Shown here: piece by piece, positions 12,954 to 34,266 of the stretch | How positions within the stretch are numbered: position 1 is the stretch's first letter | How the letters are laid out: each line of letters opens with the position of its first letter | Assembly (NCBI GenBank): GCA_964619725.1 | Contig: CAZUFC010000003.1 | Coordinates: 78,423-142,422, forward strand | From: an uncultured bacterium | GTDB lineage: Bacteria; CSSED10-310; CAZUFC01 | Length of the DNA stretch: 64,000 bases | Reading direction: 5' to 3' | Made by a program: the position numbers and the translations under genes | Notes under the pieces: generated by a model | The model's input: the letters and a program-made list of their open reading frames with translations, nothing else | What the model was told of the DNA's origin: nothing | Databases searched by the model: none

Positions 12954-12970
12954 GCTTTCGGGAGATTATT

Positions 12971-14074: not shown

Positions 14075-14147
14075 CATTTTTTAACAGAGGACAAGACTTT
14101 GTTTAGAAAACAATTCCTTTCAAATCTTTAGATGGAGGAAAATCAAA

Positions 14148-15362: not shown

Positions 15363-15412
15363 TAATTTCTTCACGAAAAATTCCGGATCGAGGATGCACG
15401 TTTGTTTACAAC

Positions 15413-17176
15413 GTGATGGTTGATATCGATAGTGATCGAAAAAGAATACGGACATTAATCGCAGTCCGTGTCGTCGTCGCTCTTACACTTCTCCTGGGAT
15501 CGGGAATACCTCTTTACATCGGGAGCGAATTCACTAAATCCGTATCGCTTATCCTGTTTAAATTCGTGTTCGTTATTTTCGCCGTTTCTCTGGTTTATTC
15601 CCTTTTATTAAACAGGATCAGGAGAGTTCTTTTTTTCGGTTGCATTCAGATTATCGTCGACGTTATTTTGGAATCGGTCATCGTTTTCTATACCGGTCAG
15701 ACTGGCAGTCCTTTCACCATCCTATACATTTTTACAATTATCTACGCCGGGATTATTCTCAGAAAACATTCCTGCTTCATCTTTGCTGCGCTCTGTTCGA
15801 GCATGTACGTCTGGATGGTCGCAGGAAAAATGCTGAATGTTCTTCCCTTGAAAGAGACCGTTTTCACTCATTTGAACGTCACGATGCCGGTTTCCGAGCT
15901 GGTTTATTTCACAATCGTCAATTTGATCGGCTTTTTTACCGTCGCTTATTTTACCGACTACATATCCGGAAAATTGGAACACACGGATAAACTGCTCAAT
16001 CAGCAGATTTCTCTCGTCGGAGATTTGCAATCTCTAAGATCGAATATACTGCAAAGTATGGCCAATGGCCTCATAACTCTGAACGGCAATGGAGAAATAG
16101 ACCTCGTCAACAACGCTGGGGAGCGTATCCTCGGTTTGCGAGAAGAACAGCTCCAAAGAAAACTCATTGAAGAGATTTTTCCTGATTCTACGGCTGAAAA
16201 AATTAAAAATATAATTAAAAATTTGTCGCAATCAGGAGAGCTCAACGAAGAATTCGAATATATAAAGGAAGGCAAAAATATTCCTCTGGGGCTGGCGGCG
16301 TCTCCTCTGAAAGATGCCAGAGGAAGACAAGTCGGCGCGCTGATATTGCTCAATGATTTGACAAACAAAAAAGAGCTGGAGAAGCACAAGCAGGCGGCCG
16401 ACCGGTGGGCTGCAGTTGCTGAACTCGCAGCCAACATGGCCCATGAAATCAGGAATCCCCTGGCCGCGATCAGCGGCAGCATTGAAGTCTTGCAGGAATC
16501 CATGAAGCTGGACGATACCGATACCCGGCTCATGGACATTATTCTGCGCGAATCGAGCCGACTGAATACACTGATTTCAGACTTCCTGAATTACGCTAAA
16601 CCGCCCGTACTTGAGAAAAACCAATGCGACCTTATTAAGCTGCTCAAAGAAACATCTACTCTCGCCGAATCGGATACTGGAAGGAAGAATCAATTGAAAA
16701 TAATCAGCGATTACAGGATTTCTTCCTTGTATATTCCTCTTGATGCCAAGCAGATTAAACAGGTTTTCTGGAACTTGATTCGTAACGCTATGGAAGCCAT
16801 GCCTGAAGGCGGAATTTTAAAAATTTCAGTCACTAAGGAAAAATATATTAATTCCTCTGACCAGCCTGCCAATTCCAGGGATAAATTTTTCGTCATAGGA
16901 GCCGATGCGATAGAGAATATGGAATATGCCTGCATTTCTTTTAAAGATAACGGGATAGGGATTTCCGAGGAGAATCTGAGTTCTATTTTTAATCCATTCA
17001 CAAGCTTTAAAGAGAACGGATCGGGTTTGGGATTAGCCATCTCATATCGTATAATAAAAGATCATGGAGGAAGGATTGCCGTTAAAAGCATCCCGAATGT
17101 CGGAACGGTTATTGATCTATTCCTTCCTTTGGAACAAACCGCCGAAATGCTGACGGCCGTTACCCAGGAGATTTGA
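15413..17176 (+). CDS. pilS: PilS-like sensor histidine kinase (multi-TM, PAS, HisKA, HATPase)
   Basis: About 6 TM segments, AHEIRNPL, NLIRNA, DNGIGI, GSGLGLAI; position between pilC and an NtrC-type regulator. Confidence 0.85.
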   Translation: MMVDIDSDRKRIRTLIAVRVVVALTLLLGSGIPLYIGSEFTKSVSLILFKFVFVIFAVSLVYSLLLNRIRRVLFFGCIQIIVDVILESVIVFYTGQTGSPFTILYIFTIIYAGIILRKHSCFIFAALCSSMYVWMVAGKMLNVLPLKETVFTHLNVTMPVSELVYFTIVNLIGFFTVAYFTDYISGKLEHTDKLLNQQISLVGDLQSLRSNILQSMANGLITLNGNGEIDLVNNAGERILGLREEQLQRKLIEEIFPDSTAEKIKNIIKNLSQSGELNEEFEYIKEGKNIPLGLAASPLKDARGRQVGALILLNDLTNKKELEKHKQAADRWAAVAELAANMAHEIRNPLAAISGSIEVLQESMKLDDTDTRLMDIILRESSRLNTLISDFLNYAKPPVLEKNQCDLIKLLKETSTLAESDTGRKNQLKIISDYRISSLYIPLDAKQIKQVFWNLIRNAMEAMPEGGILKISVTKEKYINSSDQPANSRDKFFVIGADAIENMEYACISFKDNGIGISEENLSSIFNPFTSFKENGSGLGLAISYRIIKDHGGRIAVKSIPNVGTVIDLFLPLEQTAEMLTAVTQEI

Positions 17177-18579
17177 TGGGAAAACTACTTGTCGTCGATG
17201 ATGAGCCGAGCATCTGCGCTATGCTCAGCATAATGTTTGAGAAACAGGGACATTCGGTCAAATCATGCACCAGCGCTCAAAAAGCCCTCGCCTCTATCCA
17301 GGACGAAAATGAATTCGATGTTCTGATTTCCGATATCAAGATGCCTGAAATGGATGGTCTGGAGCTTTTGAAGTCAGTTAAAAACATAAATCCCAATCTT
17401 CCGGTCATTTTAATTACGGCTCATGACAATAAAGAAACCGCCGTTTCCGCGTTGAAACACGGCGCCGAGGATTACATTGTTAAGCCTTGGAAAAAGGAGG
17501 AATTGAGGTTTCTGGTTGAGAGGGCCATTCGGAACCGTCGACTGAAAGAAGAGAATTTGATTCTCAAGCAGGAATTACAAACGCATTATCGATTTGAAAA
17601 TATTATCGGTAACAGCAAAAAAATTAGAAATATTTGGGGTACGATAAGAAAAGTGGCGGACCTGGATGCCACTGTTCTGATTACGGGCGAAAGCGGTACC
17701 GGAAAAGAGCTCATAGCATCGGCCATTCATTATGCAGGAGCCCGAAAAGAGAAGCCTTTCGTCACCGTCAATTGCGGCGCTTTACCTGAAAGCCTGCTTG
17801 AATCGGAACTTTTCGGACATAAAAAAGGAGCTTTTACAGGCGCTTATCAGAATAAGCCGGGTTTATGCGAAGTGGCGCATACCGGGACAGTGTTTCTTGA
17901 TGAAATCGGTGAAATAAGTCCCTCATTTCAGATAAAACTGCTCCGTTTCCTCAACGATAAAAAGTTGAAAAGATTGGGCAGCGTGGACGACATTACCGTG
18001 GACGTCAGAGTTATAGCCGCTACAAATAAAGACCTCCAGGCCGCAGTAAACGAGGATAAATTCCGCCAGGACCTCTTCTATCGGCTGAACGTCATTCCTA
18101 TACACGTGCCGCCGCTGAGGGAAAGGAAGGAAGATGTTCCTCTTCTCGCCGAATTTTTTCTTCAAAAATATTGTGAAAGATGTCGATGTGAATTGAAAAG
18201 ATGTTCTTCAGAAGCCATAAATCTCATGATAGAATACAAATGGCCGGGCAATGTGAGGGAACTGGAAAACGTCATCGAAAGAACGGTGGCTTTGGAACCG
18301 AAGCCTTTGATCATTCCGGAAAGTCTGCCTCCGGAGATTCGTCAAGCCGGCAGAAAAAAATATTATTCGATAAACGATATAGAAAAAGAACCGGCCAGTC
18401 TTGACGATATTCTCAGCAATATTGAGAAGAATATTCTGGTCGATGCGTTAAAGAAAACCGACGGGGTAAAAATGAAAGCCGCAGAATATTTGAAGATCAG
18501 TTTCCGTTCATTAAGATATCGGTTGCAAAAACACGGATTAGGCGATAACAATAACGTCGATGAAACGAAGGAGTTATAG
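17176..18579 (+). CDS. pilR: PilR-like sigma54-dependent response regulator (REC-AAA-HTH)
   Basis: LLVVDDE, GESGTGKE, GAFTGA, WPGNVRELEN and HTH ISFRSLRYRL; TGATG coupling to pilS. Confidence 0.88.
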   Translation: MGKLLVVDDEPSICAMLSIMFEKQGHSVKSCTSAQKALASIQDENEFDVLISDIKMPEMDGLELLKSVKNINPNLPVILITAHDNKETAVSALKHGAEDYIVKPWKKEELRFLVERAIRNRRLKEENLILKQELQTHYRFENIIGNSKKIRNIWGTIRKVADLDATVLITGESGTGKELIASAIHYAGARKEKPFVTVNCGALPESLLESELFGHKKGAFTGAYQNKPGLCEVAHTGTVFLDEIGEISPSFQIKLLRFLNDKKLKRLGSVDDITVDVRVIAATNKDLQAAVNEDKFRQDLFYRLNVIPIHVPPLRERKEDVPLLAEFFLQKYCERCRCELKRCSSEAINLMIEYKWPGNVRELENVIERTVALEPKPLIIPESLPPEIRQAGRKKYYSINDIEKEPASLDDILSNIEKNILVDALKKTDGVKMKAAEYLKISFRSLRYRLQKHGLGDNNNVDETKEL

Positions 18580-20148: not shown

Positions 20149-20826
20149 ATGCTTTCTGTCATTATTCCAGTTTACAACGAAGAAAATACCCTCGAAATCA
20201 TAGTAAGGCGTTTGTTGGACCTGAAACTGGACCTGCAAATCATTATCGTCGACGACGGTTCCGACGACGCTACCCCCCTCGTTATGGATCGTCTCGCCAA
20301 TACCCCGAAAGTCATTGCCCTCAGGCATAATGAAAATAAAGGCAAAGGCAGCGCCGTCATAACCGGCCTTACTCGCGCCCAGGGTGAAATTACCGTGATC
20401 CAGGATGCCGATCTCGAATACGATCCCATTGACCTTGTTACTATGTACCATTACATGACCGAAAAAAAACTCGACGTTCTCTACGGTTCAAGGATTCTGG
20501 CCGGCTCCTCCATGTCCCACTTAAGATTCTGGCTGGGTGGACGACTAATAACCTTTATCACTAATCTGCTTTTCAAAAGTCATATCACGGATGAACCAAC
20601 CTGCTATAAAATGATCAGAACTCCACTGCTGAAAGATTTGAAACTGGAATCAACAGGATTTGAATTCTGTCCGGAAGCGACCGCCAAGATATTGAAGAGA
20701 AATATTAAAATTCCCGAACTGCCTGTAGCTTATTACCCGCGCAAAAAAAGCGAAGGAAAAAAAATAAATTGGCGCGACGGTTACCGGGCCGTGATCACAC
20801 TCCTCAAATATAAATTAAAAAAATAA
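20149..20826 (+). CDS. Glycosyltransferase family 2 (polyprenol-phosphate glycosyltransferase/DPM1-like)
   Basis: LSVIIPVYNEE, VDDGSDD, NKGKG, QDADLEYDP, TDEPTCYK. Confidence 0.92.
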   Translation: MLSVIIPVYNEENTLEIIVRRLLDLKLDLQIIIVDDGSDDATPLVMDRLANTPKVIALRHNENKGKGSAVITGLTRAQGEITVIQDADLEYDPIDLVTMYHYMTEKKLDVLYGSRILAGSSMSHLRFWLGGRLITFITNLLFKSHITDEPTCYKMIRTPLLKDLKLESTGFEFCPEATAKILKRNIKIPELPVAYYPRKKSEGKKINWRDGYRAVITLLKYKLKK

Positions 20827-21039
20827 TCAAAATTTTCCGAGTCATTCCCTCCAGAGAAACATAGGATTCCTGCAAATTAATGTCAAAGGGCAGAAAAGTG
20901 TGAAACAGAAAAATTACACGTTCGCGTAAAGTTACCCCTCTGCAGAACTGAATCTGCAAAAAAAGCGACTCCCTTTAAATCTTCTTGCTTGTTTAATGCA
21001 GGGCACGCAACCCGTTGATGAAAATCTTTACCGGTTTAT

Positions 21040-21921
21040 TTATTCTTCCGGAGCCAATCCTTTCTCAATCAAAAATGAAAGGTCTTCCGTCTTTATTCTT
21101 CCAGAAGAACCGGAGCCGTTTCTGTAAATGTGTCTGATCGACTTTTTCAATTCATTGATGTTGCCCGGCCAGGGATAATCCATCAATAATTGCATCGCTC
21201 CATCGGTGAATCCCCTCAATTCCTTGCCGTATTCCTGGTTGAATATCTGAGTGAAACGGTTGACCAGATGAGGAATGTCGTTGACGCGCTCACGCAAAGG
21301 CAATAATTTGAAATCCAATACATTTAACCGGACGTAAAGTTCCCTGTTCATCATTCCCGTATCGACAAGCTTCGATAAATCGTCCGTTGTGCTGCCTATC
21401 ACTCGATACTTATCCGTTATCGATCGTTTGGAAAGTCCCCTCAAATGATCCAGGAAATAAATAGTCGTCTTCTGAAAATCAGCTTCCAGATGCTCGATGC
21501 CGTCCAGATAAATCGTCACTAGTTTGTCCAGGTAACCGGCTGCAGGCGGATTGTAAAAATAATCCGTTTCGATTTTTATTATCCCTTTACGCTCGTATCT
21601 TTTTAATAGCTCCATGGACAAAGTCTGACGCTCATGGACATGCTGCAATATCTTCTCCTTCTCCCTTGAAGGCAATTCCTTGCACATCTTCCTGCATGAA
21701 ACGTCCACAAAATGTTTTTTCGGCGCCGCACTCTGATTATGAATAACACGCGCTAAAAGTTTCTTGCCTGTTCCCACTTCGCCATACAGCATCAACGGTC
21801 CGTCAATGCGCTTCGAAATGTCGGCAAATTCCACCATCTTCTCGATGAATTTCGTGCTTCCCAGAATGTCCTTTACCGTATAACCGTCCCTTCGCTTTTT
21901 CGTTTTCCGCACTTTGTTCAT
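21040..21921 (-). CDS. Stand-alone degenerate sigma54-activator AAA+ domain (no GAFTGA, no Walker B Glu, no HTH)
   Basis: GEVGTGKK, FVDVSC, IYLDGIE, RELYVRLNV, LRER and WPGNINEL are retained; the GAFTGA loop is replaced by unrelated sequence. Confidence 0.8.
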   Translation of the reverse strand: MNKVRKTKKRRDGYTVKDILGSTKFIEKMVEFADISKRIDGPLMLYGEVGTGKKLLARVIHNQSAAPKKHFVDVSCRKMCKELPSREKEKILQHVHERQTLSMELLKRYERKGIIKIETDYFYNPPAAGYLDKLVTIYLDGIEHLEADFQKTTIYFLDHLRGLSKRSITDKYRVIGSTTDDLSKLVDTGMMNRELYVRLNVLDFKLLPLRERVNDIPHLVNRFTQIFNQEYGKELRGFTDGAMQLLMDYPWPGNINELKKSIRHIYRNGSGSSGRIKTEDLSFLIEKGLAPEE

Positions 21922-22028
21922 AACCTTTGCTTCCTTTCCTATTGCTTCATCGATGCCGACGTACCCTTCTACTGTTCCTCATCAAACGAATACTCATAAA
22001 AATCTTCGCTCAATCGAAAATTATCCTT

Positions 22029-22286
22029 TTAAAATAATTCCAACGGAACTACAAAATTAAAAAGCTCTTCCCAGAATCCAGCAGGAGCATATCCGCCGTC
22101 CCCTTCTTCCTCTTCGTCTCCCGTATCACCGGATGAATTGTCTCCGTTTCCCTGATCGTCATAATTGGAAGGATCCATTGATAATGCTCCCCCTCCGTCA
22201 GCATAAATGCTCTCCAAAGCTCCTCCGACAAGGCAAATCACCAGCATTGCCGTCATTACGGAAATTATAAGTTTGTAATCTCTCAC
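22029..22286 (-). CDS. Small secreted acidic peptide (85 aa)
   Basis: GTG start after a GGGGAAG RBS; signal-peptide-like N-terminus ending IYA; D/E/G-rich middle; hydrophobic tail GFWEELFNFVVPLELF; sigma54 promoter just upstream. Confidence 0.7.
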   Translation of the reverse strand: MRDYKLIISVMTAMLVICLVGGALESIYADGGGALSMDPSNYDDQGNGDNSSGDTGDEEEEGDGGYAPAGFWEELFNFVVPLELF

Positions 22287-22365
22287 AGCATCTTCCCCCT
22301 TTCAGGAACTCCTTTGTTTGTCGGTTTTTTCATTTTTTGAAATTGAAAATCCCGTCTATGCTAAA

Positions 22366-22382
22366 AGCAATAACTGTACCAA
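22366..22382 (-). promoter_or_regulatory. Sigma54 (-24/-12) promoter
   Basis: Minus strand TTGGTACAGTTATTGCT has exact GG-N10-GC spacing and is close to consensus TGGCAC-N5-TTGC; 80 nt upstream of the peptide gene. Confidence 0.8.
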
Positions 22383-22411
22383 CAGCAAAAAAAGAGTTAA
22401 AAAGACTGAAA

Positions 22412-22424
22412 AAACAATGACTTA
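22412..22424. promoter_or_regulatory. Putative IHF site
   Basis: AAACAATGACTTA has one mismatch to WATCAANNNNTTR and sits in an A-tract between the sigma54 promoter and the candidate enhancer. Confidence 0.4.
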
Positions 22425-22553
22425 ATAAAAAGACGCGTTTCCAGAGTCTTAAAATGAAAATTTCTGCCTCCATCATCAAGCAAAAGAACGTTACAAAAAT
22501 TTATTCAAGTTATTGAATTTAAAGGGAAACGAATAAAAAGAACAAAACTTTAC

Positions 22554-22574
22554 AATGTCACAAAATATAACATT
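22554..22574. promoter_or_regulatory. Candidate upstream activator sequence for the sigma54 promoter
   Basis: Imperfect palindrome AATGTCACA-AAA-TATAACATT (TGT-N11-ACA) about 175 bp upstream of the -24 element. Confidence 0.4.
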
Positions 22575-22594
22575 TATAAAAAGAATTCATGGAC

Positions 22595-25500
22595 TCAATG
22601 TTGCTTTTTGGGCCAGGGAATTCTGTATTCTTCCATTTTTCTGTCAAGCGTCGGTCGAGAAATGCCAAGGACTCTGGCAGCATCAATTTTTCTCCAACGA
22701 AGTTTTTTGAGAGTTCTTTGGATGTGTTTTTTTTCCATTTCAGCGAGAGAAAAGAGTTCATGCTCTTCTGTTTCGTCGACTTCTTCAACGGAGACGTTTT
22801 TAATACGAGGCGGAAGGTCTTTTCTTTTGATGAGCGGCGGTTTTCCGTAGACGACGGCGAATTCGACAACGTTTTCTAGGTCTCTGACATTCCCAGGCCA
22901 ATTATATTTTTTAAGGCATGTAATGGCTTCTCTGGTAAAGCCCTTGAACATTTTATTCATGCGTTTCATTTTTCTGGCGAGGAATTCAGCAGCAAGGATG
23001 GGGATGTCGTCTTTTCTTTCCCGGAGAGGGGGAAGCCGCAGGGGTAGCACATTGATGCGGTAGAAGAGGTCTTCCCTGAAATTACCATTTTTGACTTCTT
23101 TGATGAGGTCTTTGTTGGTAGCGGTAATGATACGGACGTCGACTTTACGTTTTTTACCGGCGCCGAGCTTTTGAATTTCTCCGTCATTGAGCGCTCTGAG
23201 CAATTTTGATTGAACGATGAAATTCAACTCAGCGATTTCATCGAGGAAGAGCGTGCCGCCGTCAGCGATTTCGAAGGCTCCTTTTTGATCTCTGTAAGCG
23301 CCGGTAAAGGAGCCTTTGACATGTCCGAAAATCTGGGATTCGAGCAATGATTCCGGAATAGCGGCGCAGTTAACAGGGTGAAAAGGTTTATCTCTTCTGG
23401 CGCTGTTCAGGTGAATGGCTCTGGCGAAAAGGTCCTTGCCTGTGCCCATTTCTCCTTCAATGAGGACCGTAGAATCGCTTTGAGAAATGTTGGGCAATTG
23501 TTTAAAAAGGTCCAGCATTTTTTTGCTGTTTCCGATGATAAGGTTCTGATAGCTGTATTTTTGTTCCACGTTCTTTTTGAACAGGAGGAATTCTTCCTGT
23601 TGCTGCTTGTAATAATTCGATCTGTCGATGGCGACCGCGGCAAGATTGGCGAAAGCGGAAAGAAAATCCCTGTCTCTTTCGCTGAACAAGTCCTGACTTT
23701 TTCTGCTGTCGACGTAAATAGTACCGATGATTTTATTTTCGATGAACATAGGGACGCACAGAAGCGACAATATATTGTACATCTGAACGCTTCTGAATCT
23801 GAAGAAACGTTCGTCCGACAGGGCATTGTTTGAGAATAAGGGTTCATTTTTTTCGAGTGTGGAGCGGACGATGTTTCTGCTGTAGTCCTTGGCGTCCTCC
23901 ATGGTTTTAGGGTCCAGATTCTTGGTAACCTGAGGATAAAGTTCACCGCTGCTGTCGTCCAAAAGAAATATCATGCCTCTTTCGGCTCCCACAAAACGAA
24001 TGGCCTGTTCCAATATACGTTCCAGCAGGTCTTCCGGCTCGGTTAAAGAATTAAGAATCGAAGCGATCTGAGAAAAAGTGTCGAGCAGCACGTAAACGTC
24101 TGTTTGCGTTTTAGTCTGCATCTCGCTTTCAATTTTTTTCACCAGCCCCTGAGCTTTAGCCAGCTCCGATTGAGCTTCCAGACGCTGGAAATTGTCGACA
24201 GCATTTTTGGAAAATCTCAACGCTTTTTCATAATCCTTCAATTCTATAAAAAGATTGGCGAATGTTAAATAAACGCGACTCAATCCCGCCACCGAATCCA
24301 GTTCCTGGAAAAATTTGAGCGCTTTATCCAGGTCGCTTCTGGCTTTATTGAACTGCTTCTGTTTCAGCCGGATTTTTCCGAGAAGATGATGGATTTCAGA
24401 AGATTCCATTTTATGGCCGACTTGCTCAGCAAGCTCAAGCGCCTTATCGCATAAATCAACGGCCTGATCCACATCATCCTGCGCCAGCTTTACCTCTGCC
24501 AGTATCCTCGTGTTCTTCGCCAGATTCTTGCCGGCCTCCATTTCACTGTAGAGGTTGATCGATTTGTTGAGGAACTTTTCGGCCAGGGGATATTCGCCTT
24601 TCTCTTTGTATATGTTGCCGATATGCGAAAAACAATCCGCCATGCCGCCCTGATCCTTGGAACGAATCCAGATTTCCAGGCTCTCGTTGAAAAACTTCAA
24701 CGCATCATCCCAGCGTCCTGTTCGCTGCTTCAGAAAACCCAAATTTAAAAGATTTCGCGCTATCTCAATGTGCTGATTATACTTCTCCGCCAAACTCAGC
24801 GCCTTCCTGAAACAGCTCTCCGCTTTTTTCCACTGTCCTATATCCTCGAACAACAGTCCGAGATTGGTGTTGGAACTTATGATCAGGCGGTGATCGTTCA
24901 TTTTTTGGCCGATCATTATGGCCAAATTGAAAAATTCCTCAGCCTTCGCCACTTCGCCCAGTTCCCGATGTGTGTTGGCTAAAAATTGATAGATTTTCGC
25001 CAGTTGAAAAAAATTCCCCGTTTTATGGAATATCTCCAGGCTGTAATTAAAGTGTTCGAGAGCTTGATGATACTGACTTTTTTTGAAAAAAACCAGTCCC
25101 AAATTTAAATAATTCACCGCCCGTACATCGATATTCTTGTTCGCATCCAACAAAGAAAGAGCCTGACGATAAGTGTCCCTCGCATCATCAAGTTTTCCCA
25201 GAGAAAGATAAGCGCTTCCCATAGCATTATATATTTTGCTCTTCTGAAGGTCCATCTGCTTTTGACTTTTGACCTTGCTGAGCGTCTCTTCGCATATTTC
25301 CAACGCTTGATCGATTTCCCTTTTTTCAATATGCTGCCAGGCTAAATCCATCTTTAATGAAACGCCTGTTCGACTCTTGCTCCAATCGGGAAGAACCTCC
25401 AATCCCTTCTCCATAATTTCTCTGGCTTTTTCCGCGTTCCCTTTTCTTTTTTGCAGCCTGGCAAGATTCATGTAGAGAGAACTGATTTTCTCCGCGGAAA

Positions 25501-27904
25501 ATTTGCGGTTTTTAACTATCTGAAGAGCCTTATTGTAAGCATCTTCCGACTCGCTGTACCGCCCCGTTCGTCCCAGTAACTGGCCCATGGATTTCAGCGC
25601 CTCAAATTTGTGTTTCAGCGCTCCTTTTTTCCTCATCATTTCCAGGGACCACTGATAATAGGTCAATGCCTGCTGGATATTATAAATCGACGCAGACTGA
25701 TGACCGGCTCTCAGCGCATACAACGCCCCCTTCTGATAATTGTTCGAATGGTAATGATGGTAAGCTAGGTCTCCCGCCTTCTTCTCCTGATCCTCTTGAG
25801 TCTTCTTCTCATAATATTTGGCGACTCTTTTGTGGTACAATTCTCTCGTTTTTTTATCAATCGCCGAATAGATGTATTCTTTCATCGGAAGATAACTGAA
25901 CCTGTATCTTAAATCGCCGTTGGCGGATACCGTCGTGATCAGTCGCCGGTTCATCAGCTTCGAGAGACTTTCCAATACCAGGTAGGAATCGATGTTGGCC
26001 AAACCCACTATGTCCTCCACCGTGAAATCGCCCCTCAATACTGAAGCATGACGAAGCAATTCCCAATCCGTTTTGAATAAACCCTCCAGACGTCCCTCCA
26101 TCGATTGCTGTAAAGATTGTGGAATTTTATGCTGCTTGGATTTTCCGGATTGAAATATCCAGCTTTCCCCACGTAACTCGATGACTCCCTTCTCGATCAT
26201 TGAATAGAGTATCTCTTCAACAAAAAGAGGATTGCCGCTTGTCGCCTTGTACGCCTCATCCGTTATCACTTCTTCAAAATTCGCAGCGCCGAGCATCGAC
26301 GAAAGCATCTCCTGCGTGCTCTTTTTGTCGAAAGGTTCAAGGTTCACCACGTTCGAATACAAATCCTCGCTATGAACCGACTCTCTTCCCGGCGAACCCA
26401 TGCCCGAACGCGTTTCGAAATAATCGTCGTCCATTGTCGCCAGTAACATTAAATGACAACGATCCTCCTTGTCAGTGTAATCCTCGTAGCGGTTCAACGT
26501 GTTCAAAAAATACTTCAGATAATCCAGGCTGCTCTGATCAGAAAAATGAATATCCTCTACCGCCAACACCAGCGGATCTACGCCGTTCTGAGGGTCCACG
26601 ATTCTTTTAGTCATCTCCCAGATAAAATGAGATAAACTCTCAAAGAGAAGTATCTTGTCCTTTTCAGATTTGATCTCTAACGGCTGATTCCGCAAAGATG
26701 CCTCTTCACTCTCGTAAAATTCCGGCGCCAAACGGCTCAATTGTACCTTGTACTTTTCAAGTATGCCGGATGCCTCAGCCCCCAAATACTTGACCATCTG
26801 ATTCAGCAATTCAACTATCGTCTGATAAGCTTTGTCTTCATCATGATGACAAACGCTCTTGAAAATCCGCGCTCCTCCTATCTGCACCTCGCGCTCAAAC
26901 TCATTAAGAAGCCGCGTCTTCCCGACGCCGAACTCTCCCTTTATAAGACAGGATTGAGGCTTATTGTTCTTTACTTCCGATAAATACCGCTGAAGAGCCG
27001 AAAACTCCTCTTCGCGACCGATGAAACTGCTGTAAAATCTGAAAGTCGTCGGAGTCAGTATACGCTTCGCTTTCATCGGAGTCACCAAATCTCCCAGAAC
27101 CTCAGTCGCATGCCGATATCGGAGAGCCGGGTCCTTCGCCAGCAATTTCTGAATCACCCCACTTAAACGCTGGGGCACCTCCTCGTTTATCTCTCGCGGC
27201 GGCGAAACCTCCTTTTCCAAATGCGCCATGCCCGTCTTTAACGGCGTATCCATCAAAAAAGGATTCTTCCCCGTCACCAGCTCATAAGCTACTACTCCCA
27301 GTGAATATAAATCCGCTCGCTGATCCACCGGCTTGTTCGAAAAATATTCCGGCGCCGTATACCCTAAATTGCCGCGCAGCGTCGAAGCCCCCTTCTTCTG
27401 ACTTAAAAGCTTGAACCAGCCCGCATGACCGAAATCCACCAGCTTCACGCTGTATGAACGACGGGCTTCGCCCGCTCCTGAATTCTGAAGCAATATGTTC
27501 CCCGGATTTATGTCGCCGTGAATTATACCCAACCTGTGCATGTAAGACAACGCCTGGCATATCTGGACCATTAAACGGGAAAATAAAAAATAATCTGGCC
27601 GCCGCGCCTCAATCGCTTCCGTCATCTTCGGACCCTTGATATGCTCCATCGTGAAAAATACCCGGTAGCCGCTCAATATCCCGCCTCGATAAAAATCAAA
27701 CGCACGCACGATGTTGGGATGACGTAATTGTGACAATATGCGATACTCGTTCTCCAGCGCCTTCACTTCTTCTTCCTCCACCGCCGTCTTCAGTATCGCC
27801 TCGCGCTCCTCGTAATCATCCCGAACAAGATAAAGATTGCCCCATCCCCCCTGGTCAATCTGCTCGATTATCTTGTATCTGCCCCCTAATATCACGCTTT
27901 CCAT
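22595..27904 (-). CDS. Ser/Thr kinase - STAND NTPase - TPR array - GAF - sigma54 activator AAA+ - Fis HTH fusion (1769 aa)
   Basis: Kinase: GGWGNLY, HGDINPGN, DFG, YTAPE, ADLYSLG. STAND: FIGREEE, GEFGVGKT, VEDIH, SGNPLFVEE. Long TPR array. GAF: AERGMIFL...IGTIYVDS. Activator: GEMGTGKD, GSFTGA, LFLDEI, WPGNVRDLEN. HTH: AARVLGISRPTLDRKM. Confidence 0.93.
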   Translation of the reverse strand: MESVILGGRYKIIEQIDQGGWGNLYLVRDDYEEREAILKTAVEEEEVKALENEYRILSQLRHPNIVRAFDFYRGGILSGYRVFFTMEHIKGPKMTEAIEARRPDYFLFSRLMVQICQALSYMHRLGIIHGDINPGNILLQNSGAGEARRSYSVKLVDFGHAGWFKLLSQKKGASTLRGNLGYTAPEYFSNKPVDQRADLYSLGVVAYELVTGKNPFLMDTPLKTGMAHLEKEVSPPREINEEVPQRLSGVIQKLLAKDPALRYRHATEVLGDLVTPMKAKRILTPTTFRFYSSFIGREEEFSALQRYLSEVKNNKPQSCLIKGEFGVGKTRLLNEFEREVQIGGARIFKSVCHHDEDKAYQTIVELLNQMVKYLGAEASGILEKYKVQLSRLAPEFYESEEASLRNQPLEIKSEKDKILLFESLSHFIWEMTKRIVDPQNGVDPLVLAVEDIHFSDQSSLDYLKYFLNTLNRYEDYTDKEDRCHLMLLATMDDDYFETRSGMGSPGRESVHSEDLYSNVVNLEPFDKKSTQEMLSSMLGAANFEEVITDEAYKATSGNPLFVEEILYSMIEKGVIELRGESWIFQSGKSKQHKIPQSLQQSMEGRLEGLFKTDWELLRHASVLRGDFTVEDIVGLANIDSYLVLESLSKLMNRRLITTVSANGDLRYRFSYLPMKEYIYSAIDKKTRELYHKRVAKYYEKKTQEDQEKKAGDLAYHHYHSNNYQKGALYALRAGHQSASIYNIQQALTYYQWSLEMMRKKGALKHKFEALKSMGQLLGRTGRYSESEDAYNKALQIVKNRKFSAEKISSLYMNLARLQKRKGNAEKAREIMEKGLEVLPDWSKSRTGVSLKMDLAWQHIEKREIDQALEICEETLSKVKSQKQMDLQKSKIYNAMGSAYLSLGKLDDARDTYRQALSLLDANKNIDVRAVNYLNLGLVFFKKSQYHQALEHFNYSLEIFHKTGNFFQLAKIYQFLANTHRELGEVAKAEEFFNLAIMIGQKMNDHRLIISSNTNLGLLFEDIGQWKKAESCFRKALSLAEKYNQHIEIARNLLNLGFLKQRTGRWDDALKFFNESLEIWIRSKDQGGMADCFSHIGNIYKEKGEYPLAEKFLNKSINLYSEMEAGKNLAKNTRILAEVKLAQDDVDQAVDLCDKALELAEQVGHKMESSEIHHLLGKIRLKQKQFNKARSDLDKALKFFQELDSVAGLSRVYLTFANLFIELKDYEKALRFSKNAVDNFQRLEAQSELAKAQGLVKKIESEMQTKTQTDVYVLLDTFSQIASILNSLTEPEDLLERILEQAIRFVGAERGMIFLLDDSSGELYPQVTKNLDPKTMEDAKDYSRNIVRSTLEKNEPLFSNNALSDERFFRFRSVQMYNILSLLCVPMFIENKIIGTIYVDSRKSQDLFSERDRDFLSAFANLAAVAIDRSNYYKQQQEEFLLFKKNVEQKYSYQNLIIGNSKKMLDLFKQLPNISQSDSTVLIEGEMGTGKDLFARAIHLNSARRDKPFHPVNCAAIPESLLESQIFGHVKGSFTGAYRDQKGAFEIADGGTLFLDEIAELNFIVQSKLLRALNDGEIQKLGAGKKRKVDVRIITATNKDLIKEVKNGNFREDLFYRINVLPLRLPPLRERKDDIPILAAEFLARKMKRMNKMFKGFTREAITCLKKYNWPGNVRDLENVVEFAVVYGKPPLIKRKDLPPRIKNVSVEEVDETEEHELFSLAEMEKKHIQRTLKKLRWRKIDAARVLGISRPTLDRKMEEYRIPWPKKQH

Positions 27905-28026
27905 TTTTTTTAATCTCCTTTCGGATTTTTATCACAATTATTGTAACGAACTTTTACGCAGAAGACAAAGTGATTTTTGAGGTTTCAAGGGAAATTTTTA
28001 ATTTTTTTTTCGAAAAAGTGCAGGTT

Positions 28027-29943
28027 TTATTCGAATTTTATCGGTGAAATGTAAAGTTTTGGATTTTCAGGAGGGATAAGTGTAAGTGATCTAAGACTTA
28101 TTTTTGACGGGGAGGCTGCAGGGTCTAAACGAATGCCGGTCAGATGAGTTTCCGGAGAGGAGGATTGAATGGGAGCGGCATCAACAGAGTAGATATGAAA
28201 TTCAGAATCCTGGAAGATGTCGAATTCGATTTTTTTATTTTCGTCCCAGGTTGGGTCAAATTGAGTAATCCAGTAGATTTGGGCTTTGGACAGGTCATGA
28301 ATTCCCGAAACGGCCATTTCAATTTTGAAGGAATGAATTAATCCGATGGGCCATTGGATATGGAGAGTGAGGAGATGGGGGTCGCTGCCGTAAGAGATCA
28401 GAGACCAGTAGGGGGATGTACCGGTGAGTTCAAGTTCAGGGGAGGTAAACCAGTTATGTACAGGCATTGAGCTGTCGAATTTCCATTCTTTCCTGTAAAA
28501 AGAGGGCGGAACGATTTGAAGGATAGTTGAGCGGAAATCGTAAAGTCTTTTCAAGCGTTTTTCTTCTTTGAATCGGGAACCGGTCCAGGTGAGGAAACGG
28601 TATGAATGGTAAGGAGGCGGAGGCGGAATGTTGCGCATCTGAATTTCGGAGAATGTGTATGCGCGGATATCGTAGGGTTGGAATTCATATTTCATTTTGT
28701 AATAAAGCGAGGCGCCGCTTTTAACGACATGGGCGGGTCCGAAGGAGGATGGGAGGTTTTGAATGAAGATATGAGTATCTGGAGTGATTTTTCCTGTGCA
28801 TTGTTCTATTTTTTGAGGAATTTGATCGATGAAGCTCCCGGCATAATGCCAATAGGGAAGAAGGGAGCGGATAATGAGGAGGGAGAAGAATCCGAAAAGG
28901 AGGAATGCTGTTGTAAATAGTGTGCGTGCGGTATGAGCGTTTATTTTTTTCAGTCCGGAAAAGAAACCGGCGGCTGCAACTGCAGCGCCTATCAGCGGCA
29001 TGTAAAGGAAACGTTCTCCATAGATGCTTAAAGCCGGGGATAATGCTGCTGTGAACCAGAATATCCCGGTCCGGGTTTTTCGGTTGAATGCCGCGAAAAA
29101 AAGAAAAAGCAATGCGAGCTGCATACTGGAAAGTTTAATTCCGTTTTTTGAAAGAAAGGGAGAAAACAGAGCTCCTGCATAGGTTTTCAGGTGTTCCCAA
29201 AGGTTAATTCCGAAACTGAAATGAACTTTGTTCCCGTAAACGCCGACGCTGCCCAGAACGAAAATTCTATAGAGGAGATAAGCTGCGAGAATCATGAAAA
29301 AAGGAATGAGCGGGATGATCGCTTTTTTGATTGTCGTGGACTTGCGACGAAAAAATGCCGCCAGTATAAGTATGAGCAGAGGAAGAGAAGTTGCCGTGCC
29401 TTTGCACAGCAGGGCGGCAACGAAAACGATATAAGCGGATAGGATGAATCTGGCTTTATTGCGGTAAAAAAACAATAAAAACAGGTTCAGAGCACACAAT
29501 TGAAAAAAGGCGCTGAAAAGTTCAAAAAGATTGGAAGCCCAGGGAATGATGTATGCCTGAAGCGGGTGAAAAGCGAAAATAACGCAGCCAAAGGCAGCAT
29601 ACCCGGAATCTTTCAGCATCCTTTTCATGATGACGAACGCCATGGATACATTCAGACAATGAATGATGAGACTCAAACAATGATAGGCCTGCGGACGGAA
29701 TCCGAATATCCTGAACATGCAGGTGAATGCCAGCTCGCCGACCGGACGATAAAAAAGTCCCTCACGCCCCTCCAGGAAATTTATGCCGATTTCCGAAATT
29801 CGTTGTTTCTTCAGATAATAGAAATCGTCTGCTGTAAAATAATCGTCGATTACAGGCAGAAATATACCCCAAATCCCCAGGAGGATAAAAAACAAAATCA
29901 CCTTGTCCAGCGTCCGGACTCTTGCTTCGCCGGCGATGTTCAT
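28027..29943 (-). CDS. Multi-TM GT-C-like glycosyltransferase with C-terminal soluble beta-sandwich domain
   Basis: FTADDF, FYRPV, FAFHP, ALLCK and ERFLYMP motifs; more than 10 TM segments; C-terminal SDPHL...IRLDP. Confidence 0.7.
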   Translation of the reverse strand: MNIAGEARVRTLDKVILFFILLGIWGIFLPVIDDYFTADDFYYLKKQRISEIGINFLEGREGLFYRPVGELAFTCMFRIFGFRPQAYHCLSLIIHCLNVSMAFVIMKRMLKDSGYAAFGCVIFAFHPLQAYIIPWASNLFELFSAFFQLCALNLFLLFFYRNKARFILSAYIVFVAALLCKGTATSLPLLILILAAFFRRKSTTIKKAIIPLIPFFMILAAYLLYRIFVLGSVGVYGNKVHFSFGINLWEHLKTYAGALFSPFLSKNGIKLSSMQLALLFLFFAAFNRKTRTGIFWFTAALSPALSIYGERFLYMPLIGAAVAAAGFFSGLKKINAHTARTLFTTAFLLFGFFSLLIIRSLLPYWHYAGSFIDQIPQKIEQCTGKITPDTHIFIQNLPSSFGPAHVVKSGASLYYKMKYEFQPYDIRAYTFSEIQMRNIPPPPPYHSYRFLTWTGSRFKEEKRLKRLYDFRSTILQIVPPSFYRKEWKFDSSMPVHNWFTSPELELTGTSPYWSLISYGSDPHLLTLHIQWPIGLIHSFKIEMAVSGIHDLSKAQIYWITQFDPTWDENKKIEFDIFQDSEFHIYSVDAAPIQSSSPETHLTGIRLDPAASPSKISLRSLTLIPPENPKLYISPIKFE

Positions 29944-30716: not shown

Positions 30717-30733
30717 TTGGTACATATTTTGCT
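30717..30733 (+). promoter_or_regulatory. Sigma54 (-24/-12) promoter
   Basis: TTGGTACATATTTTGCT with GG-N10-GC spacing, about 90 nt upstream of 30825. Confidence 0.7.
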
Positions 30734-30824: not shown

Positions 30825-31400
30825 ATGGTGAAAACGAAAAATCTCTGCAAAAAAGAGGAAATCGACAGCATTGAAAAATGCCGGAAAAAACTTTTTTCAA
30901 AGCAAAAAGTAAGAACTGACGAACTGGAGGAGGCTATGGTTTATCTGGCTCACGAAGGTTCGGATGAGGCAGTTTCGCTTTTAAAGGAGTATGGAAAGAA
31001 TGTGCCGGAGAATTTGAAGTATTTTTACGACTGTGCTTACGATGAAGCGGCATATTTTAATTTCGTGGAGAAAACGCAGGACATGAAAATTAAAGTGGAA
31101 ACGCCCAAAAATTTCAAACCGGAAGAGAACGGGGAGAAACTGGAGCAGTTGGAGAGAGACTGTCGTTCCATTGAGGAGCGTCTGGCGGAAAAGGGCATTA
31201 TCGTTTCATTATGCGAAAAACTGCCGGTTGAGCTGAGGAAAAAATATGTGGAAAAACTGGATGAATTGCTGAAGGGATTTCGATTTAAATCTGATGGATT
31301 CATTCATTTCGACGGCTGTTCCGGATACTGCGAAGAATGTTTTCAGTTCCAGTGGTGCGATGTTGCTGCAGAAATTATGGGCAGCAGCCGTCTTATGTAG
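30825..31400 (+). CDS. Hypothetical protein with C-terminal Cys cluster (CxxxCxxCxxxxxC)
   Basis: GGAGGT RBS; IHFDGCSGYCEECFQFQWC suggests a metal or Fe-S site. Confidence 0.7.
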   Translation: MVKTKNLCKKEEIDSIEKCRKKLFSKQKVRTDELEEAMVYLAHEGSDEAVSLLKEYGKNVPENLKYFYDCAYDEAAYFNFVEKTQDMKIKVETPKNFKPEENGEKLEQLERDCRSIEERLAEKGIIVSLCEKLPVELRKKYVEKLDELLKGFRFKSDGFIHFDGCSGYCEECFQFQWCDVAAEIMGSSRLM

Positions 31401-31494: not shown

Positions 31495-31614
31495 TGATTA
31501 AACGTTTGACTTTTTAAGCTTCGAAGCGCTAAATAAGAAAAGGTGAAAAGGTCAAATAGTCATTGCAACAAGAGTCGATTTTCAATGAACCGCAAACATC
31601 AAAGGAATAAAAAA

Positions 31615-34266
31615 ATGCGAAGAGTATGCATTATTTCTGCAATTTTGTCGACGTTTTTCGTCGGCGCAGGTATGAGTCGGGGAATAACGCCCGAGACTAT
31701 AGGAGTCATAATAAATGAAGTTTATTATGATGCGCCGGGGACGGATACGGGATATGAGTTTGTCGAATTGTACAACAATGCGCCCGATGCAGTGGATATG
31801 ACGGGATATGTATTAGCGATGAACGACCGTTATACGTTTGGAAGTTATGTCCTGCCGGCTTACACGTATGTGGTGATACACAACAACGCCGACGCGCCGG
31901 ACGAGGAGTTTGATCTTTACACGGGACCGGGTTTCGACAATATGGGTGACAGTCACGCCAGCGTGGCGTTGTTTACGGGGGCTCCTGGAAGCAGCACCAT
32001 AATAGATTTTCTTCAGTATGGGGAAGGCGACGGGGAGACCTGGGAGTCTGCGGCGGTGAGCGCAGGCATATGGACTGAAGGCGATTACGTGGATGACGTT
32101 GAGCCGGGGTATTCGATCAATTTGTACCCTGATCATCAGGATAACGATACGCCGGAGGACTGGACGGACTGCATCCCGTCGGCGCATTACAGCAACTGTA
32201 CGATTGAGCCGACGCCGGAGGGAAGTCCAACGCCGGAACCGACGATTACGCCGACTCCCACGTCATCGGGAACGCCCGGACCGTCGCCGACGCCTTATAT
32301 TTATTCGCCAACGCCGTTTCCCACCCCGACACCCTGTATATGCGGCGGACTAATCCTGAATGAAGTGATGTGCAACGCCGATGAGAACGACAACGATTTT
32401 GTCGAAATCATCAATTGTTCAATGGAAGCCGTCGATGTCGCTGACCCTCAAGTTTACATATCGGAAGAAGATTCCGACGCTGCGCCCGATAAATTGCTGC
32501 CTTTCTATTCAGGCGGAAATACCGTTATTCCGCCTCAGGGTTTCGGCGTTATATTGGACCCGAATCAGGAAGATTTTTATGACGTTCCTGAAGACGCCGT
32601 GCTGTTGAAGACGGATGATGACAGTATAGCGGACGCTAACATCAGTTGTGATGAAGTAATAGTTTTATGTTACGGTGCAACCGGCCAGGAATGCGAGGAT
32701 TCGATTTTTTCGACATACGGAGGATACAACAGTCCCGCTACGGCTCAATCCGTCGAAAGAACCGACCCCTGTGCAGACGATGAACCGGACAACTGGAATA
32801 ATTCTTCATGCGAACCCTCTTCTACCGGCCGACATTCCATAGGAGCTGCCAACTGTCCGCCAGTGGGACTGATTCCGCCGGGTTATTTGAACATTACCGA
32901 GGTTTGCCCCAAACCCGGAGAGACGGAAGGCGGAGGAAATTGCTCGGAATTTATAGAAATACTTAATTGTTCCGATGAAACGATTGACTTGAGAAACGTT
33001 CTGCTGACCGACGGTGAGACTGACGGACCGGACGGACCGCTTATTTTCAATCTCCTGGTCCCTGTCTATCCGGATGAGAATCCATACCTGGAACCCGGGG
33101 AAATGGCCGTAATTCTGCAGGAAAGCTATTTTGAAACCGCGGATATATTTACCGATGGAGAATACTCCGACACCATCTGTCAGACCGGCACGAAACTTTT
33201 AACGACCGATTCCGGTTCTCTGACTAAGAACGGGATGGCCGAAGCCAATCCCTACCTGCTGTTGAATACGGATTTTTCTCGCATCTCCACTTACCTGTTT
33301 CCGGTCTCTCATGAGACGGGCAATTCTATCGAGAGAATCGATCTTTGCGGTCCTGATACGGATGGCGCCTGGGCCGTCACTGCAGCCGATCAGCAAAAAT
33401 GCGGACGCCATTCATGCGGAAGATGGAATACGGTCAGCCCTCCTGCGCCCTCAGACGCCCCCAGAATACTGATGGGCGGTTACATGGATTCGGAAATCTC
33501 GGAAAGATACGGCGGAGTGTTGAACCTGACCGCCATAGCCATGGACCCGGACGGAGCTGAAACCATCGATTACATCGATATTCTGTTTTCAGGAATTTCC
33601 TATGGCTTCCACATGCCTCTTGTTGAAATTATTCCCCTGGATGACATATCTTTTTCCAATATAGCCCTCTATTCGGTCGATTTCGCTGTACCGCCGGGCG
33701 CCGCTCCTTCCCATTTTTCCTTTTCGCTGATTCCTTACGATGATGAAGGACATGTCGGAATCGAATGGCCATTTTTCCATATTAGGGGTACGGAATCCAT
33801 TTGTCCTCCCTATAGTTACTCTTTCGCTCCGCCGGAATTCCACAGCCCGCTTAACTTTTACGCCTGCAGCAGCCAAACTCCCTCTGTCGGAGACGTTCTC
33901 TGCGGTTTCTCTGATCCTAAAATCCTCCTGGCCGGATACTGGACCACTGATTTAAACGCTATAACTTCATGCCGCCTGCAAATGGTCGCTGCCGCTCAAC
34001 CCGCTCCAGGAAGAAGAATCGTTAAAGTCGAAATCTATTTTGCAGGATTGCCCACAGGCGTCTGTTTGCAGGATTTCGGCTTCTCTTCGGATGCGGACCT
34101 GGAATTCCTCGATGCACCCAACGACAATATCTTCGGCATTGAAATACCCCTGCAGCCTGGAGACTTGGAATATGAGGAGAATAATAGATATGCCCTGGGA
34201 CTGGCAGCAGTAGACGATTTAGGAAATAAAAGCGCTATATGGCCGCTCAGTCCGATTAATTTCTAA
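31615..34266 (+). CDS. Secreted protein with three lamin-tail-like domains, Pro/Thr linker and two C-terminal repeats
   Basis: ATG at 31615 after AAGGA, then a signal peptide. Repeats VIINEVYYD..EFVELYN, LILNEVMCN..DFVEIIN and LNITEVCP..EFIEILN; PTPEPTITPTPT linker; paired PRILMGGY/PKILLAGY...WP domains. Confidence 0.8.
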   Translation: MRRVCIISAILSTFFVGAGMSRGITPETIGVIINEVYYDAPGTDTGYEFVELYNNAPDAVDMTGYVLAMNDRYTFGSYVLPAYTYVVIHNNADAPDEEFDLYTGPGFDNMGDSHASVALFTGAPGSSTIIDFLQYGEGDGETWESAAVSAGIWTEGDYVDDVEPGYSINLYPDHQDNDTPEDWTDCIPSAHYSNCTIEPTPEGSPTPEPTITPTPTSSGTPGPSPTPYIYSPTPFPTPTPCICGGLILNEVMCNADENDNDFVEIINCSMEAVDVADPQVYISEEDSDAAPDKLLPFYSGGNTVIPPQGFGVILDPNQEDFYDVPEDAVLLKTDDDSIADANISCDEVIVLCYGATGQECEDSIFSTYGGYNSPATAQSVERTDPCADDEPDNWNNSSCEPSSTGRHSIGAANCPPVGLIPPGYLNITEVCPKPGETEGGGNCSEFIEILNCSDETIDLRNVLLTDGETDGPDGPLIFNLLVPVYPDENPYLEPGEMAVILQESYFETADIFTDGEYSDTICQTGTKLLTTDSGSLTKNGMAEANPYLLLNTDFSRISTYLFPVSHETGNSIERIDLCGPDTDGAWAVTAADQQKCGRHSCGRWNTVSPPAPSDAPRILMGGYMDSEISERYGGVLNLTAIAMDPDGAETIDYIDILFSGISYGFHMPLVEIIPLDDISFSNIALYSVDFAVPPGAAPSHFSFSLIPYDDEGHVGIEWPFFHIRGTESICPPYSYSFAPPEFHSPLNFYACSSQTPSVGDVLCGFSDPKILLAGYWTTDLNAITSCRLQMVAAAQPAPGRRIVKVEIYFAGLPTGVCLQDFGFSSDADLEFLDAPNDNIFGIEIPLQPGDLEYEENNRYALGLAAVDDLGNKSAIWPLSPINF

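Follow-up and report, generated by a model that had tools for sequence, protein, structure and literature searches.

What usually controls enhancer-binding proteins, the activators of sigma-54 promoters, is a domain of the receiver, GAF, PAS or V4R type or else a partner protein. Partners of the FleT, HrpR, HrpS and VnfA type are active ATPases with sigma-54 contact loops. RRNPP receptors are TPR-HTH proteins of about 300 amino acids (aa) found in Firmicutes, with neither an NTPase nor sigma-54. The TIGR03903 family we take to consist of giant kinase-led proteins, probably regulators, encoded beside small peptide-precursor genes. FleQ activates the operon which encodes FleT and then forms a hetero-oligomer with it (PMC7277832, PMC9542535). 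Here we describe a locus from an uncultured bacterium of the phylum CSSED10-310, in which the gene for a giant regulator is followed by the gene for a small, probably exported peptide and by the gene for a degenerate AAA+ protein. The window we have analyzed is a stretch of 64,000 nucleotides (nt), positions 78,423 to 142,422 of contig CAZUFC010000003.1 (GenBank assembly GCA_964619725.1), and all positions given below refer to this window.

In this regulator a kinase-like domain and a second, STAND-type oligomerizing NTPase are fused ahead of a complete NifA-like activator. The reading we favor, to which we give a probability of about 0.55, is that this protein drives the adjacent operon, which would encode the peptide and the dead AAA+ protein: a regulator and its target in a single cassette. 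Sequence comparison across three phyla supports the link between regulator and target; the signalling and feedback roles discussed below are plausible hypotheses. The regulator, its probable enhancer, the promoter and the two-gene target all lie inside 7 kb. The three genes are co-oriented, as the preliminary description of this DNA had noted. They were defined from the list of open reading frames (ORFs) and their translations, together with Pfam matches for the first and third:

22595-27904, minus strand: P0001, giant regulator gene, 1769 aa
22029-22286, minus strand: P0002, peptide gene, 85 aa, GTG start codon
21040-21921, minus strand: P0003, gene for a degenerate protein of the sigma-54-activator AAA+ type, 293 aa

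The gap between P0001 and P0002 is 308 nt long, the one between P0002 and P0003 107 nt. The following domains of P0001 were found with Pfam:

27104-27877, minus strand: kinase-like domain (Pkinase, residues 10-267, 137 bits)
26489-27025, minus strand: STAND P-loop domain (AAA_16, residues 294-472, 76.9 bits)
about 24080-25747, minus strand: TPR region (residues about 800-1230; TPR_MalT, PF17874, 116.5 bits; TPR_12, 203 bits)
23624-24040, minus strand: GAF domain (residues 1289-1427, 68 bits)
22775-23539, minus strand: sigma-54 AAA+ domain with AAA_lid_14 (Sigma54_activat, PF00158, residues 1456-1622, 233.8 bits)
22625-22750, minus strand: HTH_8 domain (residues 1719-1760, 46 bits)

An intact sigma-54-activator output had been recognized in this protein from the start, and both the translation and Pfam agree: Walker A (GEMGTGK), the GSFTGA loop, Walker B (LFLDEI) and HTH_8 are all present. 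The sigma-54 contact loop reads GSFTGA in P0001 and GAFTDA in its relatives. In NCBIfam, residues 1275-1726 score best against nifA, at 392 bits (cut-off 529), and the NOD-TPR part, residues 294-999, matches TIGR03903 at 203 bits (cut-off 706). The STAND P-loop, GxxGxGKT, is kept in all five giants we have aligned. The kinase-like domain has the motifs AILK and DFG, with HGDINPGN as its catalytic loop; in three homologues this loop is HxDLKPEN. A hydropathy scan of P0001 detects no segment resembling a membrane span, and the protein is therefore expected to be cytoplasmic.

Full-length homologues of P0001 are found in three phyla, with 23-34% identity. The same set of Pfam domains recurs in more than 60 metagenome protein clusters, where full-length identity never exceeds 30%. 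Where a source gives these clusters a name, it is "sigma 54-interacting transcriptional regulator", "Nif-specific regulatory protein" or "PknK". The family is thus widespread in uncultured phyla and apparently unstudied. A literature search, at the level of titles and abstracts, found no description of this architecture or of the cassette, in line with the earlier remark that no system with such a layout had been described.

The gap after P0001 contains a promoter sequence directed towards the peptide gene:

22366-22381, minus strand: sigma-54 type -24/-12 promoter TGGTACAGTTATTGCT, with GG-N10-GC spacing, 80 nt before the GTG codon of P0002

This is the correctly spaced promoter which had been reported in the gap. 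The strict pattern TGGYAYN5TTGCW has two matches in the window, with 0.10 expected. The shorter pattern TGGYAY-N7-GC is found on the correct strand in all five intergenic regions linked to a peptide gene, 67-80 nt before the start codon, with a background of 0.016 per 300 nt. The genome contains rpoN, in a single copy (G000:C28). The sequence supports the view that P0001 is a sigma-54 activator which looks intact, and that the -24/-12 promoter which it faces is the one ahead of the peptide gene.

The second strict match, TGGTACATATTTTGCT, lies at 30718-30733 on the plus strand, 92 nt before an ORF of 191 aa which belongs to no family (30825-31400); a protein of 907 aa with a lamin-tail domain (31543-34266) comes after this ORF. 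TGGTACATATTTTGCT is very like the P0002 promoter, and P0001 might serve both.

Conservation was studied in a sample of 14 genomes of CSSED10-310, the phylum of the source genome, which is rich in giants of 1500-1870 aa whose C-terminal part is of the sigma-54 type. We took the DNA downstream of 13 of these giants (one stretch was too short) and of a fragment at a contig edge (L017); loci L033, L039 and L040 were left out of the interpretation. The best-scoring homologues are G005:C40, with 32% identity over its full length, and G008:C59 and G003:C54, with 29% over a full-length alignment. A fourth one, the G013:C223 fragment (L017 and L134), is the closest homologue over the C-terminal third, with 48% identity over GAF-AAA-HTH. 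After each of these four giants we find TGGYAY-N7-GC and, 67-73 nt further on, an ORF of 66-69 aa. The proposal that homologues be searched for a recurring promoter and small signal-peptide ORF downstream has therefore given a positive result: the order giant, promoter, peptide is kept in five genomes, from four genera and four families of the phylum. A search with an alignment of the GAF domain yielded three metagenome loci, one of them a near-copy of G008:C59 and the other two too short, and four genome loci which were already in the set.

The peptides themselves are similar in plan. P0002 has a signal-peptide-like N-terminus of 29 aa, ending in IYA before an Asp (by a heuristic, not SignalP). 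The mature part is 56 aa long and has a net charge of -15, with an acidic Gly/Asp-rich linker and a hydrophobic and aromatic tail, GFWEELFNFVVPLELF. The sequence GGGGGA is found 7 nt before the GTG codon. P0002 matches no family in Pfam, NCBIfam, PADLOC or the Protein Atlas. All five peptides of the phylum, P0002 included, have a start of 29 residues resembling a signal peptide, with A-x-A (IYA in the window) and an invariant Asp. An acidic Pro/Gly-rich linker follows this Asp, and the last 16 residues are hydrophobic; these assignments also come from the heuristic, not from SignalP. A search with a profile of the peptides gives matches solely beside giants, in six places from 5 of the 14 genomes. 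Counting other phyla, eight other peptide ORFs of this kind are found after giants, with seven distinct sequences (two identical copies in G005 are counted once). P0002, which has DGGG right after the signal peptide, is closer to the peptides of a Zixibacteria-titled phylum described below than to those of its own phylum.

The two identical copies are a tandem duplication of the 67-aa peptide gene of G005:C40 (L028, 865-1068 and 1172-1375). It includes the ribosome-binding region and not the -24/-12 motif.

The gene which comes third varies in the own-phylum loci: a PP2C phosphatase in L134, a PAS-receiver protein in G008 and G003, and none on the same strand in G005. Other giants of the phylum precede larger proteins. 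In L034 and L035 the giant is followed by the strict motif and then by a signal-peptide protein of 344 or 359 aa. Large exported proteins with dockerin and beta-helix domains are found after the giant in L036 and L037, with no visible motif, and a PP2C phosphatase is found directly after it in L031 and L032. The giant of G003:C98 (L027/L031) has degenerate kinase motifs, with no VAIK lysine and no DFG, and a degenerate L1 loop. The genes directly behind it code, in this order, for a PP2C phosphatase, for an epimerase and for a large protein, as do those after the peptide in L134. This locus looks like a decayed version of the cassette, without the peptide.

Several candidate regulatory sites accompany the promoter:

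22550-22568, minus strand: candidate enhancer (upstream activating sequence) ATATTTTGTGACATTGTAA, in a block shared with G013
22506-22518, minus strand: IHF-like site or inverted repeat ATTCAATAACTTG(AAT), with one mismatch to WATCAANNNNTTR
27932-27947, minus strand: dyad GTTACAATAATTGTGA, 28-43 nt before the P0001 start, overlapping a sigma-70-like TTGTCT-17-TACAAT

The candidate enhancer is located 27-45 nt after the stop codon of P0001; the -24 element lies about 170-200 nt downstream of it. A 19-nt block, ATATTTTGT[G/T]ACA[T/C]TGTAA, is found in the same place in the window and in G013:C223 (L017/L134). Window and L017 are identical in 17 of the 19 positions, a value reached by 4 of 1000 shuffles, and the block is unique in both genomes when up to two mismatches are allowed. 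The corresponding intergenic regions of G005, G008 and G003 contain nothing better than shuffles. The pattern GTKACANTGTRA, chosen post hoc, is found once in the window with 0.02 expected. The half-site resembles the palindromes TGTRAC-N5-GTYACA found behind giants of a WOR-3-titled phylum. A TGT-N11-ACA palindrome had been pointed out in the gap: it is indeed there, at 22556-22572, where it overlaps the 19-nt block, but as a statistic it is at chance level (9 in the window, 6.9 expected). The IHF-like site also mentioned in the preliminary description is present, with its one mismatch, but carries little weight: L017 has not conserved it. There are four such one-mismatch sites in 213 nt, with 0.28 expected from the window average, in this AT-rich region. 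The dyad before P0001 is possibly an autoregulatory site of this gene, judging from its sequence and position; GTKACA-N5-TGTRA, a pattern picked after seeing the site, is found once in the window with 0.05 expected. A repeat search of the two promoter regions gives short AT-rich repeats only. A scan for terminators and promoters from 20700 to 22700 shows nothing telling, with no terminator-like site between P0002 and P0003 on their strand. The Rfam scan of the whole window gives no match.

The third gene, P0003, codes for a degenerate relative of the activators. Pfam finds Sigma54_activat in two pieces, together with AAA_lid_14 and without HTH_8. When P0003 is compared with the structure of NtrC1, the aligned blocks are 24-81 and 136-265, and about 54 residues which cannot be aligned replace the GAFTGA region. 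The motifs were compared in an alignment with 25 relatives. Walker A (GEVGTGK) and the arginine-finger region are kept. On the other hand, Walker B has LDG for LDE, sensor I GSTTD for AATN, and sensor II GNINEL for GNIREL. No remnant of an HTH is found behind the stop codon in any frame. The AlphaFold2 model of P0003 has a pLDDT (predicted local distance difference test score) of 81 and a pTM (predicted template modeling score) of 0.79. The top Foldseek matches of this model are the AAA+ domains of NtrC1, FleQ, VpsR, ZraR and PspF, with E-values of 1e-13 to 1e-17 for NtrC1, FleQ and PspF. The model therefore predicts a sigma-54-activator-type AAA+ fold. P0003 is not classed as a functional activator because it lacks the GAFTGA loop, the DE of Walker B, the Arg of sensor II and the HTH.

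P0003 had been called a dead paralog of the giant. It does have a degenerate activator core, but "paralog" is too specific: identity is 31-34% to the AAA+ domain of the giant and 29-36% to other activators, and this equal similarity to ordinary activators indicates that P0003 is no recent copy of the giant. No orthologue with more than 36% identity was found among 5.8 billion proteins (161-513 aa). An Acidobacteriota family, P0084, was considered as a home for P0003 and rejected: identity is 31%, the indel is different, and P0084 has an HTH. The P0084-type loci (L135-L214, 80 in all) contain activator-like regulators of about 290 aa, mostly from Acidobacteriota. P0084 itself has no GAFTGA, its Walker B is TIYLDG, and its HTH_8 is kept. 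A strict -24/-12 motif is found 120-180 nt before the P0084-type gene in at least 11 of these loci, and the one locus we have read, L135, is a cluster for polysaccharide synthesis and export.

Giants are also found in other phyla. In the WOR-3-titled phylum a giant (E <1e-130) is present in 21 of 101 sampled genomes. Two of its loci, near-copies of each other, have a large signal-peptide protein after the giant, and a third, L220, has a Pro-rich signal-peptide ORF of 52 aa. Two or three TGTRAC-N5-GTYACA palindromes, which are equivalent to TGT-N11-ACA, are found directly behind the giant in L220-L223; of the 226 loci compared, no others have them. In L220 this array sits between the giant gene and the 52-aa ORF; a canonical -24/-12 motif was not found in that locus.

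The Zixibacteria-titled phylum has a giant in 4 of 81 sampled genomes, and a fifth locus comes from a separate search. In four of the five loci (L243-L246) the giant is followed by a signal-peptide ORF of 68-78 aa and then by a degenerate AAA+ protein of 243-254 aa. In these peptides A/G is followed by DGG; the linker is rich in Gly and Pro, and the tail is hydrophobic. The AAA+ proteins consist of an N-terminal fragment of Sigma54_activat with AAA_lid_14; they have no L1 loop, and RR takes the place of DE in Walker B. The strict -24/-12 motif precedes the peptide start by 50-58 nt in L245 and L246. Thus the peptide and the degenerate AAA+ gene, which had been proposed as features to look for in homologues, recur in four of five loci of a second phylum, two of the four with the strict motif. 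An HTH_11 gene comes next in three of the four, with WYL confirmed by Pfam in L245 only. The fifth locus, L242, has an exported protein of 628 aa instead of the peptide. Finally, a search with the STAND region gave 80 loci from many phyla, with 21-26% identity, and the full kinase-STAND-GAF-sigma54 chain was found in L119 only.

From these data we infer the following mechanism. P0001 would be a NifA-like enhancer-binding protein, gated by a kinase-like domain and by a MalT/PknK-like switch made of a STAND NTPase and TPRs. Once active, it would bind TGTNAC-type sites behind its own stop codon, perhaps also in its own promoter, and remodel sigma-54 RNA polymerase at the -24/-12 promoter, about 180 nt farther along. 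This promoter would drive a two-gene operon, with P0002 and P0003 co-transcribed. The first product would be a Sec-exported acidic peptide of 56 aa with a hydrophobic tail, which would act in the envelope or outside the cell. We consider it an output of the switch rather than an input because, in the loci which we have read, giant-linked products are usually exported and of varying kind: peptides of 52-85 aa and proteins of 344-1051 aa. The second product, P0003, probably binds ATP but would be unable to hydrolyze it, to touch sigma-54 or to bind DNA. Most likely it would enter or cap the AAA+ ring of the giant and tune the response. Damping is the probable effect, since the residues for hydrolysis and for sigma-54 contact are missing. 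The nearest precedent for an activator inducing its AAA+ partner is FleQ/FleT (PMC7277832, PMC9542535).

Several observations weigh against this reading. In the whole genome the strict pattern TGGYAYN5TTGCW has 29 matches, the same number as its reversed control; the motif alone is therefore no evidence, and it is its position and conservation that support the promoter. The genome (9.17 Mb in 344 contigs, 90.9% complete) has about 37 full sigma-54 activators. Any of these, including one 2.5 kb away, could serve the P0002 promoter. The 19-nt block is common to one relative only, and the statistics of the dyads are biased and only indicative because both patterns were picked after the sites had been seen. 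Phosphotransfer by the kinase domain of P0001 is doubtful because its catalytic loop, HGDINPGN, has neither the Arg nor the Lys expected there. None of the four other peptide-linked loci in the phylum has the dead AAA+ gene, which within this phylum is found in the window only. P0003 and its Zixibacteria-titled counterparts have 20-25% identity, an insertion in one case and a deletion in the others, and DG as opposed to RR in Walker B. With such low identity and different lesions, the recurrence may reflect convergence, by repeated recruitment of a dead AAA+ protein, or else common descent, and the functions may not be the same. L119, from an Acidobacteriota record, has a giant without a peptide downstream.

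The alternative which survives best, although we consider it unlikely, is that P0003 is a positive partner, as FleT is for FleQ or HrpR for HrpS, so that a mixed ring would be needed for activation at a second set of promoters or would redirect it there. FleT, whose operon is activated by FleQ and which then works with FleQ as a hetero-oligomer, is the precedent (PMC7277832, PMC9542535). P0003 retains Walker A and the arginine-finger region, its model is a well-folded AAA+ domain, and a second strict -24/-12 motif is found 8 kb away, at 30718-30733. However, P0003 has lost GAFTGA, the Glu of Walker B, the Asn of sensor I and the Arg of sensor II, and therefore each copy in a ring would cost one subunit able to hydrolyze ATP and contact sigma-54. 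In known examples, activator rings which include such variants are less active.

Less probable still is the peptide-signalling circuit, a sigma-54/STAND analogue of RRNPP, in which the exported peptide or its hydrophobic C-terminal piece would build up outside the cell, re-enter it and bind the TPR sensor, leading to oligomerization and to more transcription of the peptide gene itself. In three phyla at least, a small peptide gene is coupled to that of the regulator. Evolution of the peptides is the faster one: between G008 and G003, which belong to one genus, the peptides are 59% identical and the giants 88-97% per domain. The peptide gene has been duplicated in tandem in G005, and the most divergent domains of the giants are TPR and NOD. 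The hydrophobic tail resembles the small hydrophobic peptides of Rgg systems. Nevertheless, the sensor appears to be cytoplasmic and the peptide has a Sec-type signal, in a phylum predicted to be Gram-negative (PMC8248873). The scan of window ORFs, and the reading of parts of the related loci, revealed no oligopeptide permease, Opp-type or other, and no processing protease. Other giants precede secreted proteins of 344-1051 aa, which fits a target better than a ligand. Co-folding the mature peptide with TPR residues 720-1275 gave a score of 0.01, which lends no support and is neutral on binding. A fuller version, to which we give slightly less credit, would have the tails as autoinducers read by the TPR-STAND NTPase, whose oligomerization would assemble the sigma-54 ring, with the dead subunit, made from the same transcript, as a built-in delay or brake: an ancient device for signalling between cells in several uncultured phyla. 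If true, P0001 would be the first peptide quorum-sensing receptor of the STAND/sigma-54 kind in diderm bacteria.

There is only a small chance that the three genes are mere neighbors, with another activator serving the promoter, the giant acting elsewhere and P0003 as a decaying remnant without a role. This would agree with the lack of genome-wide enrichment of the strict motif, with the abundance of activators and with the absence of a P0003 orthologue in its own phylum. It does not explain the order of giant, promoter and peptide in five genomes and in further phyla, or a promoter at a fixed distance from the start codon. P0003 is an intact frame of 293 codons with a confidently predicted fold, and four of five loci of another phylum have a dead AAA+ gene in this very position. 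The danger-sensing or anti-phage module which had also been suggested, where the STAND NTPase would detect an invader and the peptide or the dead AAA+ protein would arrest the cell, is the least credible of all: STAND NTPases with TPR sensors include the antiviral Avs proteins, and the PADLOC models PD-T4-6, mad6 and MkoA match its kinase domain, but the PADLOC matches reflect general kinase and AAA+ homology with no defense-specific partner, the surroundings are housekeeping and pilus genes rather than an island, no effector domain (nuclease, protease or pore former) was found, and the giant family is widespread, with exported proteins of several kinds as targets in the loci inspected.

The cassette, in which the regulator would drive its adjacent target, is a compact unit, whose targets would be a tiny, fast-evolving exported peptide of conserved build and a naturally "poisoned" ring subunit. 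A dead subunit which tuned the ring would represent a new control mode for sigma-54 activators, and a peptide acting back on the sensor would represent a new class of peptide signalling. In either case, the cassette offers a handle on regulation in phyla which have no cultured member.

The surroundings of the cassette contain glycosyltransferases, housekeeping genes and a type IV pilus cluster: it is not part of a mobile island. The pilus cluster (11136-18579, plus strand), which is convergent to the cassette, codes for PilB, PilT and PilC and has a sensor histidine kinase and an activator of the NtrC type of its own. An ORF of 136 aa after this cluster has no recognizable pilin character. Immediately upstream of P0001 there is a gene for a protein of 638 aa (28027-29943, minus strand) with about eight hydrophobic segments and no family match. 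It is preceded by an ORF of 167 aa, which belongs to no family, and both have the orientation of P0001.

A comparison with known systems shows partial agreement in each case. The sigma-54-activator AAA+ fold without a contact loop, predicted for P0003, is also a feature of VpsR, NtrX, TyrR and P0084, and P0084 has the same TIYLDG Walker B. These proteins keep their HTH, whereas P0003 has none, and the insertion in P0003 corresponds to a deletion in P0084. FleQ/FleT of Cereibacter (Rhodobacter) sphaeroides, HrpR/HrpS and the VnfA paralogues also combine an activator with a second, activator-like AAA+ protein. In contrast to these partners, P0003 has no contact loop, no Walker B Glu, no sensor I, no sensor II and no DNA-binding domain. 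With regard to a FleQ/FleT-type pair, what the sequence of our locus shows is the order of the genes, with just one -24/-12 motif upstream.

The RRNPP systems (Rap, NprR, PlcR, PrgX, Rgg) also have a cytoplasmic TPR regulator adjoining the gene for a small exported peptide with a hydrophobic C-terminal part. P0001 has a kinase-NOD-TPR-GAF-AAA-HTH order, and its TPRs are not fused directly to an HTH or phosphatase output. The TOMM system kinase/cyclase fusion (TIGR03903) is matched by the NOD-TPR part of P0001 far below the cut-off of the model, but P0001 has no cyclase domain, and no cyclodehydratase or peptide-modifying genes are found nearby.

MalT and PknK of Mycobacterium tuberculosis share with P0001 an AAA_16 P-loop NTPase followed by a MalT-like TPR sensor, and PknK also has an N-terminal Ser/Thr kinase. 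The output is different: a sigma-54 AAA+ motor with a Fis-type HTH in P0001, as opposed to a LuxR-type HTH or none. Unlike them, P0001 holds two different oligomerizing ATPases in one chain, and its kinase loop is atypical. Finally, the enhancer-binding proteins of the GAF type (NifA, NorR, FhlA) have the same order of GAF, sigma-54 AAA+ and HTH_8, an adjacent target promoter, and upstream sites of the TGT...ACA type. The spacing of NifA sites is N10, while that of the sites linked to P0001 is N11. P0001 adds about 1270 N-terminal residues, containing the kinase, STAND and TPR regions, and its nifA score is below the cut-off. Its putative target is a tiny exported peptide and not a metabolic operon.

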